A stretch of 64,000 nt of DNA from a virus. Where the stretch lies: the IMG/VR virus record IMGVR_UViG_3300021404_000006, positions 1-64,000 of that record; one strand, 5' to 3'. Shown here in pieces: positions 4,227 to 11,950 of this stretch (the stretch's first letter is position 1; the number at the start of each line of letters is the position of its first letter). Under the pieces are notes generated by a model that saw nothing but the letters and a program-made list of their open reading frames with translations, had not been told where the DNA came from and ran no database searches. Made by a program: the position numbers and the translations under genes.

Positions 4227-4299
4227 GGGGTAGTGGCACGACAGGTAAGGCACCTGCTTTGCAAGCAGCTACATGAGGGTTCGAATCCCTTCTACTCCA
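4227..4299 (+). tRNA. tRNA-Ala(TGC)
   Basis: GGGGTAG/CTACTCC-A acceptor with G3:U70, loop TTTGCAA. Confidence 0.88.
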
Positions 4300-4501
4300 C
4301 TGCTCCGAGGTAATTAGCGGCCACCTTAGACGTGGTGACAACGCGGTAGAAGGAGCTTCAAATTCCGCGAGAGTAGTCCTTTGCCGGACGAGGGTAGCGG
4401 GTAAAGCGGGTAAAGGGTTTCTGTGGGCTTTCCCTCCGCCTCGCCAAAGATACTGCCGGGGGTAGCTACCTGGTAAGTCTGGAATCGTGACAGCCTTACG
4501 A

Positions 4502-4573
4502 CGGGATTGAGGAAGACGGTAATCTGCTTCGTTCGGATCGAAGAGAAACTGGGTTCGACTCCCAGAGTCCCGA
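4502..4573 (+). tRNA. tRNA-Pro(CGG)
   Basis: CTTCG-TTCGGAT-CGAAG anticodon arm, GTTCGACT T-loop. Confidence 0.88.
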
Positions 4574-4576
4574 CAA

Positions 4577-4700
4577 GTGCTCAGTAAACGGTCGATAGGG
4601 ATCAGATGCGGGTTCAAGTCCCGTCACTTCCACGGTGTGCAAAGCCAATGGGGGTGTAGCTCAACGGCAGAGCGGTGAACGTAGACCGGGTAATGAGCGC
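4577..4700 (+). ncRNA. yrlA: Y RNA, YrlA-like (circularly permuted tRNA-like domain on a Ro60-binding stem)
   Basis: Terminal stems GTGCTCA/TGAGCGC and CGGTC(GA)/GACCG enclose T arm (GCGGG-TTCAAGT-CCCGT), acceptor stem CACTTCC/GGGGGTG closed by a loop, then D arm (TAGCTCAACGGCAGAGC). Confidence 0.8.
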
Positions 4701-4794
4701 CTAGCGAGAAGAGTCGCGAATCTTTGAGCGAACCGGAAGCGTACCTCCGAGGGACCTAGGCCGATCACCTGGGAGCGTCCCGAAAACGTGTCAT

Positions 4795-4866
4795 CGGGAG
4801 CGAGGAAGACGGTAATCTGCTTGCTCGGGATGCAAGAGAGACTGGGTTCAACTCCCAGGTTCCCGA
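4795..4866 (+). tRNA. tRNA-Pro(GGG)
   Basis: CTTGC-TCGGGAT-GCAAG anticodon arm. Confidence 0.88.
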
Positions 4867-4921
4867 CGCAGCCGCCAGCCTGGATACGAAATATGTGTGG
4901 CTAGAAAAAGTCCAGGAATAA

Positions 4922-4992
4922 CGGGATGTAGCGTAATGGTAGCGCGCCTGCTTTGGGAGCAGGTGGTTCAGGTTCGATTCCTGGTATTCCGA
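4922..4992 (+). tRNA. tRNA-Pro(TGG)
   Basis: CCTGC-TTTGGGA-GCAGG anticodon arm. Confidence 0.9.
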
Positions 4993-5061
4993 CGACGGGT
5001 GACCGCACTCAAGTGTCAGGGACGTGCGGCAGCAGGCGTGATGGGTGTAGGCGTCGCACAT

Positions 5062-5134
5062 GGGTCTGTAGCTCAATCGGTAGAGCGCTGGTCTGAAAAT
5101 CCAGAGGTCACAGGTTCGATTCCTGTCGTTCCCA
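5062..5134 (+). tRNA. tRNA-Phe(GAA)
   Basis: Loop CTGAAAA, canonical D and T arms. Confidence 0.88.
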
Positions 5135-5135
5135 C

Positions 5136-5206
5136 GGGGTAGTTAGTTAACGGCAAACTCCCACTCTTCCAAAGTGGTACTGCGGGTTCGAATCCCGTCT
5201 GCCCTT
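5136..5206 (+). tRNA. tRNA-Gly(TCC)
   Basis: CCACT-CTTCCAA-AGTGG. Confidence 0.88.
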
Positions 5207-5255
5207 CAAGGTCGGCCTCAATAAGCCATTTACGCGCCCAACCGGGCCGGCCCCT

Positions 5256-5328
5256 GTCACAATAGCTCCAGCGGTAGAGCGCCCCTTTCGTAATGGGGAG
5301 GACGTGGGTTCGAATCCCTCTTGTGGCT
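5256..5328 (+). tRNA. tRNA-Thr(CGT)
   Basis: Loop TTCGTAA, canonical cloverleaf. Confidence 0.88.
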
Positions 5329-5329
5329 C

Positions 5330-5403
5330 GCGTCTCTAGCTTAACGGTTCAAAGTAACTGGCTCTTACCCAGTGAGATCAGGGTTCGAATCCCTGGGGAC
5401 GTA
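5330..5403 (+). tRNA. tRNA-Lys(CTT)
   Basis: ACTGG-CTCTTAC-CCAGT. Confidence 0.88.
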
Positions 5404-5407
5404 CTGT

Positions 5408-5484
5408 GCTCGGGTAGGCAACTGGCAGACCACAGGGTTTCAAACTCCCTGATGCTGTGGGTTCAAATCCCATCCTGAGTACCA
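5408..5484 (+). tRNA. tRNA-Leu(CAA), short variable loop
   Basis: AGGGT-TTCAAAC-TCCCT, A73, encoded CCA. Confidence 0.8.
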
Positions 5485-5485
5485 T

Positions 5486-5558
5486 TTCCGTCTGGCCAAA
5501 TTGGCAAGGCACCTGGCTCTGAACCAGGAGATTCCAAGTTCGAATCTTGGGACGGAAG
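5486..5558 (+). tRNA. tRNA-Gln(CTG)
   Basis: CCTGG-CTCTGAA-CCAGG. Confidence 0.9.
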
Positions 5559-5627
5559 CGGGGAAATCGTACAGCTACGATGAGGAAATACCCGAATACG
5601 AGCTGAGTCCGGCGATTTCCCTACCAT

Positions 5628-5701
5628 GCTCCGCTAGGCAACTGGCAGACCACAGGGTCTCAGAAATCCTGATGCTCGGGGTTCGAATCCCCGGTGGAGT
5701 A
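5628..5701 (+). tRNA. tRNA-Leu(CAG), short variable loop
   Basis: AGGGT-CTCAGAA-ATCCT. Confidence 0.85.
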
Positions 5702-5803
5702 CGCGAGACGAGCCGGATGTAATCGGTTATCCTGGCCAAAAGAATTACAGGGGCGCTATTGCAGCGCTTAAAGCTCGGTTGCAATAAATATGTTCGTCTC
5801 CAT

Positions 5804-5876
5804 GCCTCCTTAGCTCATTCGGAAGAGCAGCTGTCTTGTAAACAGCAGGTGATCGGTTCGAATCCGATAGGTGGCT
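5804..5876 (+). tRNA. tRNA-Thr(TGT)
   Basis: GCTGT-CTTGTAA-ACAGC. Confidence 0.9.
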
Positions 5877-5956
5877 CTGGGCTTGTTAAGAAATCCGCAA
5901 CACGGTCGTTAGTCGGCCGCCTACGGGCGCGGCTCTTACACTGGCAGGCTCTTCAT

Positions 5957-6029
5957 GTCACAATAGCTCCAGCGGTAGAGCGGTTGCATGGTAAGCAACA
6001 GGTCTCGGGTTCGAATCCCGATTGTGGCT
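5957..6029 (+). tRNA. tRNA-Thr(GGT)
   Basis: GTTGC-ATGGTAA-GCAAC. Confidence 0.9.
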
Positions 6030-6113
6030 CTAGCTCAGACACCGTTCGACGCGCCCCGGCTGCAAGCGGACGTACTGTCGAATTACCTTGCAGGGGTCGT
6101 CTGAGCTTTAATT

Positions 6114-6218
6114 GTTTCCGGTCGAGGCAATAGGCAGACCCTAGAGGAGCAGCTTAGCTGCAACAAGCCGTCATAAGGCTGAGATAGTGTGCCGGTTCGA
6201 AACCGGCCCGGAAACCCA
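6114..6218 (+). tRNA. Atypical tRNA(CAT) with extra arm 5' of the anticodon arm
   Basis: GTTTCCGG/CCGGAAAC acceptor + CCA, AGCC-GTCATAA-GGCT anticodon arm, GCCGG-TTCGAAA-CCGGC T arm, inserted GCAGC-TTA-GCTGC hairpin. Confidence 0.6.
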
Positions 6219-6219
6219 T

Positions 6220-6293
6220 GTGGTAGTAGCTCCAATTGGTAGAGCATCGGCTTGCCAAGTCGAATGTTGCGAGTTCGAATCTCGTCTGCCGCA
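6220..6293 (+). tRNA. tRNA-Gly(GCC)
   Basis: TCGGC-TTGCCAA-GTCGA. Confidence 0.9.
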
Positions 6294-6347
6294 CTTACCC
6301 GCACAGGTACCTCGTATGGAAGGTGGGATTAAAAACCCTGTGACCCT

Positions 6348-6430
6348 GCGCACATGATGGAATGGTAGACGTGCTGTCTTGAGGAGGCAGTGTCCGGAAG
6401 GGCGTGCCGGTTCGAATCCGGCTGTGTGCA
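6348..6430 (+). tRNA. tRNA-Leu(GAG)
   Basis: CTGTC-TTGAGGA-GGCAG, long variable arm. Confidence 0.9.
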
Positions 6431-6504
6431 CTAGCTAGCGGAAGGAAGTACGCCTTCGCCGGGGAAGGTCCGGCACGAGAGAAGAATCGTCCGCTAGCTT
6501 TAAT

Positions 6505-6589
6505 GGAAGGCTCGCATAGCGGTCTAGTGCGCTGCCCTGCTAAGGCAGTTGGGGTCAAACTCACGCGGGTTCGAATCCCGCGCCTTCCT
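6505..6589 (+). tRNA. tRNA-Ser(GCT)
   Basis: CTGCC-CTGCTAA-GGCAG, long variable arm. Confidence 0.9.
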
Positions 6590-6665
6590 CGGTAGGTGGT
6601 TTCAGGTGAATCGTTCCTGATGAAATGCTCTCCGGTTATTAGGATATGAGCTGCCACCCCTTAAC

Positions 6666-6750
6666 GGATGATTCGCATAGTGGTCTAGTGCGCCAGCTTG
6701 GAAAGTTGGTATGGGTCAAACCATCGCGAGTTCGAATCTCGCATCATCCT
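6666..6750 (+). tRNA. tRNA-Ser(GGA)
   Basis: CCAGC-TTGGAAA-GTTGG, long variable arm. Confidence 0.9.
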
Positions 6751-6751
6751 C

Positions 6752-6836
6752 GGAAGATGATCCCTGCCGGTAATGGGGGCCGCCTCGAAAGCGGATCGTG
6801 GCTAATCACCATGGCGTTCAATTCGTCCTTCTTCCT
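6752..6836 (+). tRNA. tRNA-Ser(CGA), possible 8/4 fold
   Basis: CCGC-CTCGAAA-GCGG; GGCG-TTCAATT-CGTC 4-bp T stem. Confidence 0.75.
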
Positions 6837-6904
6837 CTTGGGCGCAGGCTGGCACTGTGGGTAACTCCTGGGAAATACGGGCTCGTACCAGGACCCATTT
6901 ACGA

Positions 6905-6977
6905 GCCGATTGCAGAGCTGGTTGCTCGGAGAACTCTGATAAGGTTCTTGCGCTGAGTTCAATTCTCAGAGTCGGTA
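6905..6977 (+). tRNA. tRNA-Ile(GAT)
   Basis: GAACT-CTGATAA-GGTTC. Confidence 0.85.
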
Positions 6978-6978
6978 C

Positions 6979-7052
6979 GGGAGCAGGTCCGAACGGTATG
7001 ACGGAATCTGGCTTATATCCAGCTTGACTAGGTTCAATTCCTAGTGCTCCTA
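6979..7052 (+). tRNA. tRNA-Ile(TAT)
   Basis: CTGG-CTTATAT-CCAG, GGGAGCA/TGCTCCT acceptor. Confidence 0.8.
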
Positions 7053-7053
7053 C

Positions 7054-7127
7054 TGTGGCGTAGCTCATTGGCTAGAGCGCCGGCTTCATAAACCGGGAGG
7101 TAGAGGGTTCGAATCCCTTCGTCACTA
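7054..7127 (+). tRNA. tRNA-Met(CAT), initiator-like 1:72 mismatch
   Basis: Loop TTCATAA; T1:T72 mismatch. Confidence 0.85.
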
Positions 7128-7128
7128 C

Positions 7129-7200
7129 GGGTCTTTCGTTCAATGCGCAGGACAGCGGGCTTTTACCCCGTATATCTGGGTTCGAATCCCAGAGGACCCA
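7129..7200 (+). tRNA. tRNA-Lys(TTT)
   Basis: GCGGG-CTTTTAC-CCCGT. Confidence 0.88.
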
Positions 7201-7294
7201 CGGCAAGTGTGAGCAATCAGATTACTTGTACTCCCTCTCGCTTTTTGTGCAGCCCGGTAAACGGGTGGAGGACGGATGGCCTGGTTGCAAAAAT

Positions 7295-7368
7295 GCTCCG
7301 TTGGTCTAGCGGTCAGGACACCTGGTTCTCAGCCAGCGAGATCATCGGTTCGAATCCGATACGGAGCA
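7295..7368 (+). tRNA. tRNA-Glu(CTC)
   Basis: CTGG-TTCTCAG-CCAG. Confidence 0.88.
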
Positions 7369-7388
7369 CGCTACAATAAAAAGCACAA

Positions 7389-7462
7389 CGTCCATTAGGC
7401 AAGCGGTTCAAGCCACCTGTCCTTCAAACAGGGGATCATCGGTTCGAATCCGATATGGACGA
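7389..7462 (+). tRNA. tRNA-Glu(TTC)
   Basis: CCTGT-CCTTCAA-ACAGG. Confidence 0.85.
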
Positions 7463-7463
7463 C

Positions 7464-7539
7464 TGCGGGGTGACTGGAGTTCGGACCCAGCCCGGCCTCA
7501 TAAGCCGCATAAACGTCGGTTCAAATCCGACCCCCGCTT
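7464..7539 (+). tRNA. tRNA-Met(CAT), fMet-like
   Basis: GCGGGG/CCCCGC acceptor with 1:72 mismatch, CGGC-CTCATAA-GCCG. Confidence 0.82.
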
Positions 7540-7576
7540 CTCGTCCAATCCGTAAAGACGTAAAATTTCCGGGCAT

Positions 7577-7649
7577 TGGCCCTTAGCTTAATCGGCAAAG
7601 CACTGGACTGTTAATCCGGGGGATATTGGTTCGAATCCAATAAGGTCAG
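7577..7649 (+). tRNA. tRNA-Asn(GTT)
   Basis: CTGGA-CTGTTAA-TCCGG. Confidence 0.9.
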
Positions 7650-7691
7650 CAAGCGCTTTCAAACCCCGGCGCTTTATAAGAACGGGGCTAT

Positions 7692-7766
7692 GGGATCATA
7701 GCAAAATCGGAATAATGCACCACCCTGTCAAGGTGGAGGGTACGGGTTCGAATCCCGTTGGTCTCG
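7692..7766 (+). tRNA. tRNA-Asp(GTC)
   Basis: CCACC-CTGTCAA-GGTGG. Confidence 0.9.
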
Positions 7767-7864
7767 CGTAGTGCCTTCGTTGTCCTTCTGCTCCTGGGGT
7801 GAGAGCCGTATATTTCTACGCTGTTTCAATGTTCTGATTTTTCCAAGCAGGAAGTTTCTGATAC

Positions 7865-9355
7865 ATGGCAAGGCACAGCAGAACGCTGGCAAAGCACGGC
7901 CGGAAAAGGCCTAAAAGGACTTGGCGCAATTCAAACTTCAAGGTGTATTCTCTGGTAGCAGCCGGCGCTATCGTACTGGCGTGTGCTGCGGCAGCTCCTG
8001 GCGTACTGCACGGGAATACCTCGAATCTCGTAGCCACCCAGTTCGCAAACAGCAACGCGCGGGTACAGGCTACTGCTCCTCCCTCTAGCCCCACTGCCGG
8101 CAGCAACAGCGACGCGGCACTTCCCAGCCAGATGACAGGCAGCGAGCAGATACAGCTCGGCAATCTCCTGACGGCACCGCAGTGTACGCTGAACGTGCCC
8201 TCTGATCCGCTGTCATCAGGCCTGTCCCAGCCGTGGTTCCTGGAAAGTGCTACCGCTGCCTGTGCGGAAAACGCTCAGACTGGCGCATTCGTCCAGGCGA
8301 CAATCCTCGATCCGGCCACAGGTGCCCTCAGCGTTTACTACCCGCTGGTAGTACCAGAAGGTGCAACTCCAGCCAGGACCATCGTGCCGCCGGTTCTGCC
8401 GCCTAACGCGGTTGTCACCATCTGGACAGGGTTCAACGGCAGTCAGCTCAAGCTAGCCGGACCTGGTGCGGCGTACTTCGTTAACTTCGCCCAGCAGTCG
8501 TGGGCCAACAGCCCGCAGTTCTTCCAGGCACTGCGTACGGCAATCGGCCAGGGGCTGGTTACCGTTCCTCCTAACGGTACCGCTAAGGACGGTCTCCCCT
8601 GTCCTACCACCCGGGACTTCTCGATCGTGGACCAGGATCAGTCGGACAACGTGCCCTCTTCAGAGCTGGTTGCAGGGCTCGGTGCGACAGCTCAGGCTAA
8701 TGCGGCGAACATCGCTGCGCTGCCGGGTGCTACCCAGCTGTTCAACGGCTCCGATGAAGGGGTCCTGGAATCCGTAGACAGTGCCCTAGGCTGTAAGCAG
8801 TGGATGGTACCCGACCAGACTGACAACAACGTCCTGGCCCCCTCTGCTGCGCTGAACGAGCAGCAGGCCGCATCCTTCCAGGGCATTCCGATGGCCTTGG
8901 TACCTGGCTTGAACGACTTCGTGACCAGCAATGGCACGGCTCCCCCTGCGGGCAAGGAAAACCTGTTCTTGCAGAACCTGTACCGCTTGCAGGTAGGCCA
9001 GCCGCCCACAGGCAACGGCAACGACACCAGAGAGTACTGCGTCAATCTTGCACTGACCGGGGCACCACGGCTGCAACTGGACTTCGATACCGAGTCGTCT
9101 GCACCCACCCCCGCGTTCCTTGCCGGAACCGGCGTCAACCTCGCTCTCGCGCTCGCGCACCGTTTCACGGGCACCTGGGCTAACTTGAACTGTACGGGCC
9201 TTACCGGGCAGCCAAGTCCGGTTACGGTGACCCTATCCGGCAACACTGCTATCGCGGCTACTTTCACGCCGTACCGGGGGCCGCTGTTCGGCCTCTCGTA
9301 CTCCGGGTACCCGTCAGGCAGTTCGTCCTCAGGCAGTACGCATTTCGGATCGTGA
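7865..9355 (+). CDS. Secreted/membrane-anchored protein of unknown function inserted in tRNA array
   Basis: 496-aa ORF; basic N-terminus plus hydrophobic helix; paired Cys; CTLNVPSDPLS and CPTTRDFSIVDQDQSDNV blocks. Confidence 0.8.
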   Translation: MARHSRTLAKHGRKRPKRTWRNSNFKVYSLVAAGAIVLACAAAAPGVLHGNTSNLVATQFANSNARVQATAPPSSPTAGSNSDAALPSQMTGSEQIQLGNLLTAPQCTLNVPSDPLSSGLSQPWFLESATAACAENAQTGAFVQATILDPATGALSVYYPLVVPEGATPARTIVPPVLPPNAVVTIWTGFNGSQLKLAGPGAAYFVNFAQQSWANSPQFFQALRTAIGQGLVTVPPNGTAKDGLPCPTTRDFSIVDQDQSDNVPSSELVAGLGATAQANAANIAALPGATQLFNGSDEGVLESVDSALGCKQWMVPDQTDNNVLAPSAALNEQQAASFQGIPMALVPGLNDFVTSNGTAPPAGKENLFLQNLYRLQVGQPPTGNGNDTREYCVNLALTGAPRLQLDFDTESSAPTPAFLAGTGVNLALALAHRFTGTWANLNCTGLTGQPSPVTVTLSGNTAIAATFTPYRGPLFGLSYSGYPSGSSSSGSTHFGS

Positions 9356-9361
9356 CAGACT

Positions 9362-9405
9362 CTGCTGTATGCCATTCGGGCATTTCCGCCGGGTGGCATA
9401 CAGCA
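9362..9405 (+). terminator. Strong hairpin after secreted-protein gene (terminator or processing site)
   Basis: CTGCTGTATGCCA...TGGCATACAGCAG inverted repeat; no U-tract. Confidence 0.55.
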
Positions 9406-9413
9406 GGAAACAT

Positions 9414-9487
9414 GCAGCGTTAGCACAATGGACTAATGCACCTGACTACGAATCAGGAGAATAGGGGTTCGAGTCCCTTACGCTGTA
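9414..9487 (+). tRNA. tRNA-Arg(ACG)
   Basis: CCTGA-CTACGAA-TCAGG. Confidence 0.9.
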
Positions 9488-9546
9488 CTAGGTCCGTGGG
9501 TACCTTTTGTGAGTCTCTTCGGAGGCCTAGATAAAACCCACATCAA

Positions 9547-9618
9547 GCCTCTTTAGCTCAATGGTAGAGTAACGGTCCTACAAACCGAGGACTTAGGGTT
9601 CGATTCCCTTGAGAGGTA
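9547..9618 (+). tRNA. tRNA-Val(TAC)
   Basis: CGGT-CCTACAA-ACCG. Confidence 0.85.
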
Positions 9619-9620
9619 CC

Positions 9621-9693
9621 GGGTCGTAACTCAAACGGTTGCGAGACTTGGCTGTGACCCAAGTGTGAGCGGGTTCGACTCCCGCACGACCCT
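9621..9693 (+). tRNA. tRNA-His(GTG)
   Basis: CTTGG-CTGTGAC-CCAAG. Confidence 0.82.
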
Positions 9694-9793
9694 CAAGGAA
9701 TGACACTGCTATTCCCTAACCGCAGGACTAGGGCCTCGGGCATGCAGTGCGCTGGAGAGCGCCTAGTGGGAGAAAAATAAGTACTCACATCAA

Positions 9794-9871
9794 GCCTGTT
9801 ACGCTCCAAGGTGGACACGGCGGCTGTAAACCGCTTGCTTCGGCAGGGGAGTTCGATTCTCTCAACAGGTA
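9794..9871 (+). tRNA. tRNA-Tyr(GTA)
   Basis: GGCGG-CTGTAAA-CCGCT, variable arm TGC-TTCG-GCA. Confidence 0.85.
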
Positions 9872-9959
9872 CGGCTCCAGTGCACCGCTATCCGGCCGGT
9901 AGCTAGTTTCCCGTGAGGGATTGCGTTCTGTTAGGGAACGGGTGCACTGGAACTGGCTT

Positions 9960-10031
9960 ACATCTGCTAGCGGACCTAGTTCTTTCCCTCCGAAGGAAGG
10001 ACACCGAGTTCGACTCTCGGCAGGTGTACCA
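9960..10031 (+). tRNA. tRNA-Arg(CCG)
   Basis: TTTCC-CTCCGAA-GGAAG, encoded CCA. Confidence 0.82.
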
Positions 10032-10105
10032 CGGAGGTTGGCCGAGAGGCGAGGCGCTAGGCTGCAACCCTAGTTACGCGGGTTCAAATCCCGCATCTCC
10101 GTCCA
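10032..10105 (+). tRNA. tRNA-Cys(GCA)
   Basis: CTAGG-CTGCAAC-CCTAG, U73, CCA. Confidence 0.9.
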
Positions 10106-10106
10106 T

Positions 10107-10178
10107 AGTCCTGACAGCGGACCTGTACCTGCGTCCCCTAAATGCGGCGTCCGAGTTCGACTCTCGGTAGGACTACCA
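10107..10178 (+). tRNA. tRNA-Arg(CCT)
   Basis: TGCGT-CCCCTAA-ATGCG, encoded CCA. Confidence 0.82.
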
Positions 10179-10198
10179 GTGCTCATCACTATGAACTA

Positions 10199-10278
10199 GG
10201 GGCCGGGTTGGTATCGACGTAGGGAAAGCCGCATGCGGCACCCGCCACGGATCTAGGGTTCGAATCCCTACGGCTCCA
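10199..10278 (+). ncRNA. Minimal tmRNA-like RNA (tRNA-like domain only, no tag reading frame)
   Basis: GGGGCCG/CGGCTCC-A acceptor with G3:U70; stemless D-loop GGTTGGTATCGAC resembling tmRNA GG-x-TTCGAC; GGA before T arm TAGGG-TTCGAAT-CCCTA; no anticodon loop. Confidence 0.7.
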
Positions 10279-10279
10279 C

Positions 10280-11950
10280 TTAACCGATCGATTTCAGGAT
10301 GTCGTAGTCGTGGCGTTTCTTGTTCAGTCCCCACGCTGCCAGGTTGCAGCTCACCGCCGGCGTGATGTCCGTGGTTGAGTCCCTGCGGCACCAGGTCTTG
10401 CCTCCGTCGCCCATAAGACGCGTTTCAGCCGTTCCCACGGCATGCCAGAGGGTGTACCCGGTCTTCTCTCCCAGGTGCCTTAGCGGCCGGTTCTCGTCCT
10501 TGCACTGCTGCACGAACCAGGCGTAAGCCGCCGCGTCGTCGCTAGCCGTGGACCTGATGAGCCTGGACCCGAACTTATGATGCTTCGGCCACAGCTTCTC
10601 AAGGTCATCTCCGAGGCCTGCGGCCGGCCCTGTGCGCGGCGCTACGATCGCCAGGGGCCTGTACTTCTGTACCAGCTCCGCCAGCCGGTCTACAACCCAG
10701 TTAGTGCCAGGGCGGGCACAGTTCCTCGGGATCTCCATCACCAGGAAGCCTTCAGGATGCACCCAGGAAACCGCGATCGAGGCGCTGGTACCGTCCTCGG
10801 CAACATCCAGCGCGAAGGCTGTCTGGCCGCCAGCAGGGATGATTCCTGGCTTCTTCACCGTCAGGCTGCGAAACAGGTCTTCGGAAACTACCTTCCAGGC
10901 TTCCTCTTCCGCCGGCCACTGGCCGACGCCCAGCCGCTCGCGGTCGTACTCGACATCGGAAAGCGTCGCCAGCTCGTTCTTCGTGAATTCCCAGGACAGG
11001 CGGTAGCCGAACCCAGGATTGGCCTTAGCCGCGCTCTCAGGGGTGTCGCGGTCGTCGTGCTCATCGCAGACGATGTAATGGTTGGTCTTCCGTCCGTTGG
11101 TACGGTCTACCTTGCACGTCGGCAGGTGCGGCTGTATCGACCATTCAGCGCCGAACAGGTCTTTAGTGTCGTGCGTGATGCGCCTGCGGGACCGGGCCAG
11201 CTGCTCGGAGTCTTCCAGGCCTGCGGAGCCGGCCAGCCACATCTGCGAGTTGGGCACGGCGGACATGGTAGGCAGCGAGGCACCGACTGATTCGGCCGCG
11301 AGGATCATGGCTTCGTCGTAGATCAGGCAGTTACAGGTGAAGCCTCGGGCGGAGCCACGCGACCTCGCCAGGAAGCGAAGTCGCGGGCTTACGCTCTCGA
11401 AGACGCGCTTACGGCCGGAGCCGAAGATAAGGGTGGGCCTGGCAAGGAGCTGAATCTGCTCTTCACCGTGAGAAAACCGTGGCTTGCCTTTCATGCGCCG
11501 CGACAGAGCCGGGTAGTTCTCAATGGTCTGGATGACGCGGAGGAAATGCTCCTGGGCAGTCTTCAGCTCGTGGGCCGTGTGAATAATAAGCTTCTCGCCC
11601 AGCAGGTACATGCCCGCCAGCTCGCGGATTTCCAGGATCGTGCCCTTGCCGTTCTGCCTGGAAACAATTACGTCATTCTCGAAGCTAGCCCACCGGCCGT
11701 CAGGACGCGTACCGCAGGCTTCCCTGATCACCCATTCCTGCCACGGGTCCGGTTTGTAGCCGAAGCCTTTAGCCCAGTCAAGAATTTCAGTGGAAAGGTA
11801 ATCGCCGCATCCTATTCCGCTGTAGCCGTCTTCAGTTATACCACAGCTAGGGCAGGTGCTTACTTCTTCCCTGTGCCTGTCGGGCGCAGTCCAGAACCGG
11901 GGCATTTGCTGCCCGTAAACCTCTGGTTCTTCAAGTACGGCACTTACCAT
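10280..11950 (-). CDS. terL: Terminase large subunit
   Basis: PDPWQ Q-motif, Walker A SRQNGKG, Walker B LIYDEA, ANPG, ERLG, RNase H-like FALDV. Confidence 0.93.
   Translation of the reverse strand: MVSAVLEEPEVYGQQMPRFWTAPDRHREEVSTCPSCGITEDGYSGIGCGDYLSTEILDWAKGFGYKPDPWQEWVIREACGTRPDGRWASFENDVIVSRQNGKGTILEIRELAGMYLLGEKLIIHTAHELKTAQEHFLRVIQTIENYPALSRRMKGKPRFSHGEEQIQLLARPTLIFGSGRKRVFESVSPRLRFLARSRGSARGFTCNCLIYDEAMILAAESVGASLPTMSAVPNSQMWLAGSAGLEDSEQLARSRRRITHDTKDLFGAEWSIQPHLPTCKVDRTNGRKTNHYIVCDEHDDRDTPESAAKANPGFGYRLSWEFTKNELATLSDVEYDRERLGVGQWPAEEEAWKVVSEDLFRSLTVKKPGIIPAGGQTAFALDVAEDGTSASIAVSWVHPEGFLVMEIPRNCARPGTNWVVDRLAELVQKYRPLAIVAPRTGPAAGLGDDLEKLWPKHHKFGSRLIRSTASDDAAAYAWFVQQCKDENRPLRHLGEKTGYTLWHAVGTAETRLMGDGGKTWCRRDSTTDITPAVSCNLAAWGLNKKRHDYDILKSIG

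Follow-up and report, generated by a model that had tools for sequence, protein, structure and literature searches.

Here we report that an 80-nt RNA gene at the end of the tRNA array of a soil phage is, as judged by comparative sequence evidence, a real gene for a tmRNA that has been reduced to its tRNA-like domain (TLD), without the tag-coding part. This mini-tmRNA is placed by its predicted architecture, and by a covariance model of its family, as a further member of the TLD-only type represented by Mycobacterium phage DS6A, and not as the first phage case. We consider it probable that such a TLD-only tmRNA of the DS6A family lowers SsrA tagging in the host through competition with the host tmRNA. 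The initial annotation of this DNA had proposed a tmRNA tRNA-like domain lacking the mRNA-like domain, an assignment that is supported both by the Rfam tmRNA model RF00023 (49.2 bits) and by R1, a model of the family built in this study (56.2 bits). The novelty which it implied for a phage tmRNA lacking that domain was estimated too high, since the DS6A precedent was not known to it.

The source genome is a complete virus record of 118,922 bp with direct terminal repeats, and the window, by which we mean the whole 64,000-nt stretch that was analysed, is its first 64 kb (Table 1). The number of tRNA genes in the array depends on the method, with 25 recovered by Rfam at the gathering threshold and 27 by ARAGORN. 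The stop of the convergently transcribed terminase gene, at position 10280, falls directly after the end of the mini-tmRNA. Of the neighbouring ORFs this terminase is the sole one named by PHROGs (phrog_9, E 4.3e-50); in tblastn searches it is 30-35% identical to actinobacteriophage terminases and matches approximately 1,588 phage records, whose hosts are nearly all actinobacterial, similarities that point to an actinobacterial host for the phage. Pfam returned no match for the terminase at E up to 0.01, and none for the five ORFs around the mini-tmRNA. A site search detected nothing that resembles a promoter, and on the plus strand nothing that resembles a terminator; the sole terminator-like site is on the minus strand (9563-9541), far upstream, so that no such site adjoins the mini-tmRNA. 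A coding function for the element was considered and set aside, as the open frames that cross it constitute no evidence of coding.

Table 1. Features of the mini-tmRNA and its surroundings (positions are those of the window).
Feature	Position	Strand	Description
tRNA array	4227..10186	+	27 ARAGORN tRNAs plus tRNA-like genes missed by ARAGORN; the mini-tmRNA closes the array
Canonical tRNA-Ala(UGC)	4227-4300	+	same array
Mini-tmRNA gene, TLD only, whole	10199..10278	+	80 nt, from 5' G to discriminator A; direct reading; RF00023 49.2 bits; R1 56.2 bits
Acceptor 5' strand	10199..10205	+	GGGGCCG; G3 at 10201 pairs with T at 10275 (G3:U70)
D-loop analogue	10206..10218	+	stemless, 13 nt, ending GGTATCGAC; direct reading
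Helix 2 (P2) 5' strand	10219..10224	+	GTAGGG; direct reading and model alignment
A-rich internal loop	10225..10227	+	AAA, conserved in the family; direct reading and family alignment
Cap hairpin	10228..10239	+	GCCG-CATG-CGGC, 4 pairs, 4-nt loop; at the place of the mRNA-like domain and pseudoknots in full tmRNA
Helix 2 (P2) 3' strand	10241..10248	+	CCCGCCAC; direct reading and model alignment
Linker before T arm	10249..10253	+	GGATC, 5 nt (family consensus GGAC); direct reading
T arm	10254..10270	+	TAGGG-TTCGAAT-CCCTA, canonical; direct reading
Acceptor 3' strand	10271..10277	+	CGGCTCC; 7 pairs with 10199-10205; discriminator A (A73) at 10278
Terminase large subunit	10280..11950	-	556 aa, convergent neighbour; tblastn, phrog_9

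Direct reading of the element bears out the anatomy that had been proposed for it. The last member of the array has the acceptor GGGGCCG/CGGCTCC-A with the G3:U70 pair, a D-loop without a stem, and GGA before a canonical T arm, while between these lies a short helix with the GCCG-CATG-CGGC cap, and no anticodon loop, pseudoknots or tag ORF. The CCA end is not encoded, the A73 discriminator being followed by a C at 10279 and then by TT. At the end of the D-loop, G10216 and A10217 stand opposite A10251 and G10250 as tandem non-canonical pairs, and C10218 pairs with G10249. Helix 2 (P2) is less regular, its pairs in the model alignment (10219:10248, 10220:10247, 10222:10243, 10223:10242 and 10224:10241) being interrupted by one mismatch and by bulges. 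The interior between the D-loop and the GGATC linker amounts to 30 nt, too short a stretch to accommodate pseudoknots or an mRNA-like domain, and the central loop of four bases means that there is no anticodon loop. Hence the mRNA-like domain (resume codon, tag reading frame and stop) is absent, as are pseudoknots PK1-PK4, with a single 12-nt hairpin in their stead; a full tmRNA has approximately 250 nt of pseudoknots and tag message in the place of these 30 nt. The two acceptor strands are in the standard order, 80 nt apart, and ARAGORN made no permuted call, which is not the arrangement of a two-piece (permuted) tmRNA. The arrangement is that of the DS6A type, namely a gene of approximately 65-85 nt in standard 5'-3' order that comprises a TLD and a short capped helix 2.

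Rfam model RF00023 aligns end to end with positions 10199-10281, with one large deletion, at 49.2 bits against a gathering cut-off of 47. The same model gives 21.1 bits on the phage's own tRNA-Ala(UGC), and therefore prefers the mini-tmRNA by 28 bits. The tRNA model RF00005 yielded no match on the mini-tmRNA at E up to 10, and ARAGORN reported neither a tRNA nor a tmRNA nor a tag peptide at 10199-10278, so that the concern, raised in the initial annotation, that the element might score better as an ordinary or degenerate tRNA is not borne out. Of the other models that had been advised for it, that of mitochondrial tmRNA, RF02544, matches nowhere in the complete phage genome at E up to 10. With default or lax filters, and even when 1 kb was scanned at E up to 10, cmscan placed neither a tRNA nor a tmRNA on 10199-10278, and the rows that overlap it, mascRNA-menRNA (17.8 bits), Plastid-psbl-rps4 (16.9 bits) and cyano_tmRNA (8.8 bits), are all far under their cut-offs. 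As both ARAGORN and default Rfam scans miss the mini-tmRNA, phage annotation overlooks a common gene, one that probably targets host ribosome rescue.

Neither the fold of the single sequence nor a search with it is informative. The predicted fold is unexceptional, with a z-score of -1.08 and 25 of 200 shuffles folding as well, and the minimum-free-energy structure, which differs from the structure of the family, was rejected as a structural guide. Searching the related loci with the single 83-nt query in nhmmer returned weak matches only (E 0.015 or worse), and such a search is not enough for the mini-tmRNA. The fold being unremarkable, the case for the mini-tmRNA rests on comparative evidence.

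To define the family, a first pattern combining the cap hairpin, the T-loop and TCCA was applied to a viral collection, in which it recovered at least 119 stretches. From 110 distinct matches we removed seven, of which four combined an excessive span with 6 of 7 acceptor pairs (L063, L175, L192 and L246), one had 5 of 7 pairs (L189), and two were shorter than 74 nt and tRNA-like (L145 and L149). This left 103 distinct sequences of approximately 75-86 nt with all seven acceptor pairs. Four near-duplicates (L013, L174, L204 and L223) were left out of 104 aligned sequences, giving 100 for the analysis of covariation. The covariance model R1 was built from 19 gap-free members and a hand-drawn structure of 22 pairs, with the window's copy and that of DS6A both kept outside the seed. 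R1 matches the window at 56.2 bits (E 7.9e-12), as compared with 28.2 bits on the phage's tRNA-Ala, and separates the family (47.7-99.7 bits) cleanly from tRNAs (34 bits at most). Within the family the window's copy scores low, ranking 92nd of 100.

Across the 100 distinct sequences, 96.5% of cells hold standard pairs, as opposed to 67.2% after shuffling and no more than 50.4% once pairing partners are slid. Changes on both sides of a pair were found at 15 of the 22 pairs overall, including all 7 in P2 and 4 of 5 in the T stem, and the T stem is paired in 100% of the family. Since the search pattern fixes U70, C71, C72, A73 and the CCGCAYG cap, the filter fixes acceptor pairing, and the alignment (A5) was fitted to the model, the free tests of covariation in these counts are those of the P2 and T stems only. 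In the homologs from related phages, for which a test of covariation had been advised, the form of approximately 80 nt recurs with its two freely tested helices maintained by compensatory changes. The family also retains the pairs beside helix 2: G.A is present in 97 of 100 sequences, the second non-canonical pair covaries (A.G in 69, A.C in 9, C.U in 8 and U.C in 6), and the Watson-Crick pair is C:G in 83 and U:A in 10. All three of these flanking pairs are present in the window.

A second pattern provides a view of the acceptor end that is free of the first search, as its constraints are confined to GGAC, the D-loop motif and a portion of the T arm, and touch neither the acceptor nor the cap. 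It recovered at least 87 distinct elements, of which one (L266, with 5 of 7 acceptor pairs) was dropped to leave 86 usable. Among the matches listed, G3:U70 is found in 84 of 86, A73 in 85, C74 in 82 and a GGG start in 84, from which the alanine identity set is, on this pattern of conservation, seen to be under strong selection. The CCGCAYG cap occurs in 33 of the 86 members listed, the rest having other short stems with loops of 4-5 nt; because its sequence varies freely across the family, the cap is a matter of structure and not of fixed sequence. Taken over both patterns, the uncultivated phage contigs hold at least about 150 distinct elements of approximately 80 nt.

The terminase was also used as a query to retrieve 24 related loci from IMG/VR (49-85% identity), 11 of which hold a mini-tmRNA by R1, for the most part at the same site. 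ARAGORN finds tRNA arrays in 7 of the 24. The mini-tmRNA adjoins tRNA-Arg(CCU) in close relatives and is placed elsewhere in more distant ones, and both by eye and in the alignment helix 2 and the T stem differ among relatives by compensatory changes. ARAGORN found no full-length tmRNA in the 24 loci, and RF00023 gave matches of approximately 80 nt over its cut-off in 4 of 10 related contigs tested, none of them longer. The concern that relatives might carry a full-length tmRNA at this place, the window's copy being a non-conserved deletion, is therefore answered by the short form that the relatives share.

Cultured carriers were identified by BLAST with two family members and confirmed with R1. 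They include the Streptomyces phages LuckySocke (97.5 bits), BRock (89.1 bits) and Shaeky (81.7 bits), in which the mini-tmRNA occupies gaps of the tRNA arrays, as well as Pontimonas phage phiPsal1 (72.7 bits) and Stenotrophomonas virus Jojan60 (71.8 bits); in all five the copies are unannotated. In Streptomyces phage GiJojo (PP725410.1, 17025-17103) a copy 97.5% identical to a family member lies under an annotated 'hypothetical protein', probably an ORF called in error across the RNA gene. Several genomes that carry a mini-tmRNA also have annotated genes for RNA repair or RNA quality control. In LuckySocke an RNA ligase and a Ro-like RNA-binding protein are encoded close to the array, BRock has an RNA ligase and DS6A an RtcB-like ligase.

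In prokaryote genomes sampled at one per species, the pattern matched 85 stretches, and the 80 loci listed were tested with R1 at E <1e-6. Ten of these 80 are R1 matches, in Streptomyces, a Mycobacterium MAG, Cellulosimicrobium, Acidimicrobiales, an Actinomycetota MAG, Sinomicrobium, two Christensenella MAGs, a Saccharibacteria MAG and one further bacterium, and presumably represent prophages or mis-binned phage contigs. The remaining 70 listed loci, including four haloarchaeal records, were rejected as family members by R1 at the same threshold.

The closest known system is the element of DS6A, which R1 locates at JN698994:28478-28557 with 61.4 bits, between gp33 and the DNA polymerase III gene and unannotated. 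That R1 finds it, with the same cap motif, places the window's element as a member of the DS6A type. The two (DS6A being tmID 11587 of the tmRNA Website) share a length of approximately 80 nt, a 7-bp acceptor, G3:U70, the T arm, a stemless D-loop ending TCGAC, a short helix 2, an A-rich internal loop and a CCGCAYGCGG cap; in both records the gene is unannotated. They differ in setting. DS6A is a temperate phage of 60.6 kb with an integrase and with no annotated tRNA array around the element, whereas the window's copy closes a large tRNA array in a 118.9-kb phage with terminal repeats, and its P2 is less regular. Mao et al. 2009, as cited in PMC4131195 and PMC11915505, is reportedly the primary paper on DS6A-type tmRNA. 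Hudson, Lau and Williams (2014, PMC4131195) list the element as 'Mycobacterium phage DS6A (TLD only)', and PMC10865867 mentions DS6A and tmRNA solely in connection with integration sites.

Comparison with other tmRNA forms further delimits the element. With canonical tmRNA (RF00023) it shares the acceptor with G3:U70 and A73, the T arm, the stemless D-loop and the start of helix 2, but it is without the mRNA-like domain (resume codon, tag ORF and stop) and without pseudoknots. Like the organelle tmRNAs that lack a coding sequence (CDS), including jakobid and other mitochondrial forms (RF02544) and the plastid forms of Mallomonadaceae, it consists of a TLD only, with no tag frame. As described in PMC11915505, CDS-less tmRNAs occur in mitochondria and plastids, with plastid forms of approximately 65 bp in Mallomonadaceae; the mitochondrial ones are found together with SmpB and are believed to assist where mRNAs are incomplete, and mitochondrial tmRNA genes are usually circularly permuted. 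The window's element, in contrast, has no RF02544 match and is in standard order. Moreover, the organelle forms act beside their own imported SmpB, whereas that of the window is a viral gene in a host with a complete tmRNA.

In its favoured role as a competitor of the host tmRNA, the mini-tmRNA would be made as part of the array transcript, and its ends would be matured, as in a tRNA, by host RNase P and 3' processing. It would then receive its CCA from a host enzyme, given that only C74 is encoded in the window, and would be charged by the host alanyl-tRNA synthetase by means of G3:U70 and A73. Binding of host SmpB through the D-loop/T-loop elbow would allow it to compete with host tmRNA for SmpB, and probably also for EF-Tu and for the vacant A site where ribosomes have stalled. 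SsrA tagging would be reduced during infection, and phage proteins whose mRNAs are broken or stalled would escape being marked for proteolysis. No smpB, CCA-adding enzyme (PF01743) or peptidyl-tRNA hydrolase gene was found in the complete phage genome, and the host must consequently supply each of them.

By analogy with DS6A-type molecules, competition with host tmRNA, resulting in less SsrA tagging, appears to be the best-supported effect. [quoted passage not shown] What that paper and PMC11915505 describe, however, is inhibition in E. coli by a molecule or form of this kind, and not a natural phage-host pair. Other considerations also count against the explanation. The window's own copy has a mismatch and bulges in P2, a 5-nt linker and a low rank in the family, and were SmpB titration the whole mechanism, with charging dispensable, the near-invariant alanine identity set would be left unexplained.

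This last point raises an alternative, which we regard as possible though unlikely, in which the RNA acts as a tag-less rescue molecule. Alanylated mini-tmRNA would enter stalled ribosomes with SmpB and EF-Tu and accept the nascent chain. As there is no template, release would follow by drop-off together with peptidyl-tRNA hydrolase or an alternative rescue factor, so that ribosomes would be recycled with the product left unmarked, and repeated rounds would add several alanines. The conservation of G3:U70, A73 and C74 in a set of at least 86 listed elements chosen regardless of them speaks for this alternative, since a near-invariant acceptor end implies that charging or ribosome entry matters beyond the needs of a pure SmpB sponge, although the same end may be kept for processing, stability or EF-Tu binding. 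The mitochondrial CDS-less tmRNAs that occur with SmpB (as outlined in PMC11915505) offer a parallel. On the other hand, no route is known by which an RNA lacking template and stop codon could complete the reaction, the phage has no peptidyl-tRNA hydrolase gene of its own, and the E. coli result, as cited in PMC4131195 and PMC11915505, is one of inhibition and not of rescue.

The near-invariance of G3:U70, A73 and C74 does keep alive a related and more doubtful proposal, that alanyl-mini-tmRNA together with SmpB works in charged form on the ribosome, with the nascent chain either left untagged or extended by alanines in repeated rounds. Were it true, ribosomes would keep recycling while phage products were hidden from SsrA-directed proteolysis, which could be of importance where tRNAs or mRNAs are cleaved by nucleases of host defence. 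Such a setting would fit the location of these genes, which in some isolated phages lie within tRNA arrays and close to genes for RNA repair.

Two further explanations dispute that the element is a functional tmRNA derivative at all. It is highly improbable that it is a decaying remnant without function, either of a phage tmRNA that has lately lost its middle or of a piece of host ssrA taken up from an integration site. Phages often integrate in ssrA and can carry ssrA fragments, according to PMC9004378, and the P2 of the window is indeed imperfect; however, the same architecture of approximately 80 nt is found in relatives whose terminases are only 49-79% identical and across phages of several bacterial phyla, every variable helix has compensatory changes, the 5' and 3' halves are both present, unlike in an attP core, and relatives contain no full-length tmRNA by ARAGORN (24 loci) or the tmRNA model (10 contigs). 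Equally hard to credit is a divergent or D-stem-less tRNA-Ala that still decodes: the tRNA-like acceptor and T arm and the site in a tRNA array are what it would predict, but the central loop has 4 nt where an anticodon loop has 7, there is no D-stem, the cap sequence is free in the family, the tRNA model and ARAGORN are silent while the tmRNA model prefers the element to a genuine tRNA-Ala by the 28 bits given above, and the D-loop motif and tandem non-canonical pairs are those of the family that contains the DS6A TLD.

For the window alone the result is modest, being one more TLD-only tmRNA. The family is of wider interest, as it is larger than the searched literature suggests: at least about 150 elements, compared with 9 'standard, no CDS' sequences in the 2025 tmRNA database, which has 79 bacteriophage sequences in all (PMC11915505). 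Our search of the literature, supplementary tables excepted, found no published large family of phage TLD-only elements beyond DS6A; Table S2 of PMC11915505 may list the nine 'standard, no CDS' and the phage entries, and could alter the novelty of this breadth. The family is probably an under-annotated and testable phage counter-measure against host ribosome rescue, and the existence of cultured carriers makes the question of decoy versus rescue directly testable.

With respect to expression, three soil metatranscriptome runs cover much of the region, with shares of 0.76, 0.45 and 0.43. In one of these (X1) a 170-nt contig covers positions 10138-10307 without a difference, while parts of the terminase gene are uncovered in the same run; the other two (X2 and X3) have no contig over 10199-10278. 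Only these three runs were drawn on, the DNA runs X4-X23, whose shares are small, being left aside. Contigs of this kind cannot show ends, strand or level. They hint that the array is present as RNA, with the qualification that the libraries may contain DNA and that the best-covering run may be the source of the window's assembly. Position 9448, the wobble A34 of tRNA-Arg(ACG) (9414-9488, anticodon 9448-9450), reads G in X1 and X2 and A in X3, which looks like inosine, produced by A-to-I editing by a host enzyme; strain variation is also possible.

The array has several further peculiarities. It is split by a 496-aa ORF (7865-9355, plus strand) for which Pfam and PHROGs gave no match, and a long inverted repeat at approximately 9360-9408, after the stop of this ORF, was reported only as a chance-level MIR160 match. 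Positions 9790-9872 probably encode a tRNA-Tyr(GUA) with a long variable arm, which ARAGORN did not call and which gave a weak tRNA-Sec match (20.7 bits); the matching place in relatives is an ARAGORN tRNA-Tyr. Two tRNA-like genes, at 9955-10031 and 10106-10186, are missed by both ARAGORN and Rfam RF00005 and align with the tRNA-Arg(UCG) and tRNA-Arg(CCU) of relatives, respectively. Their anticodon loops hold CCG and CCU, the CCU gene having C instead of U33; their D-arms are short and odd, and their T arms are near-identical (89% over 28 nt). Finally, in two relatives (L014:6637-6711 and L015:10558-10635, minus strand), ARAGORN calls a 'tRNA-SeC' with anticodon TCA at the array place that is occupied by tRNA-Leu(CAA) in the window and in other relatives, and which may represent a suppressor-type tRNA that reads UGA.
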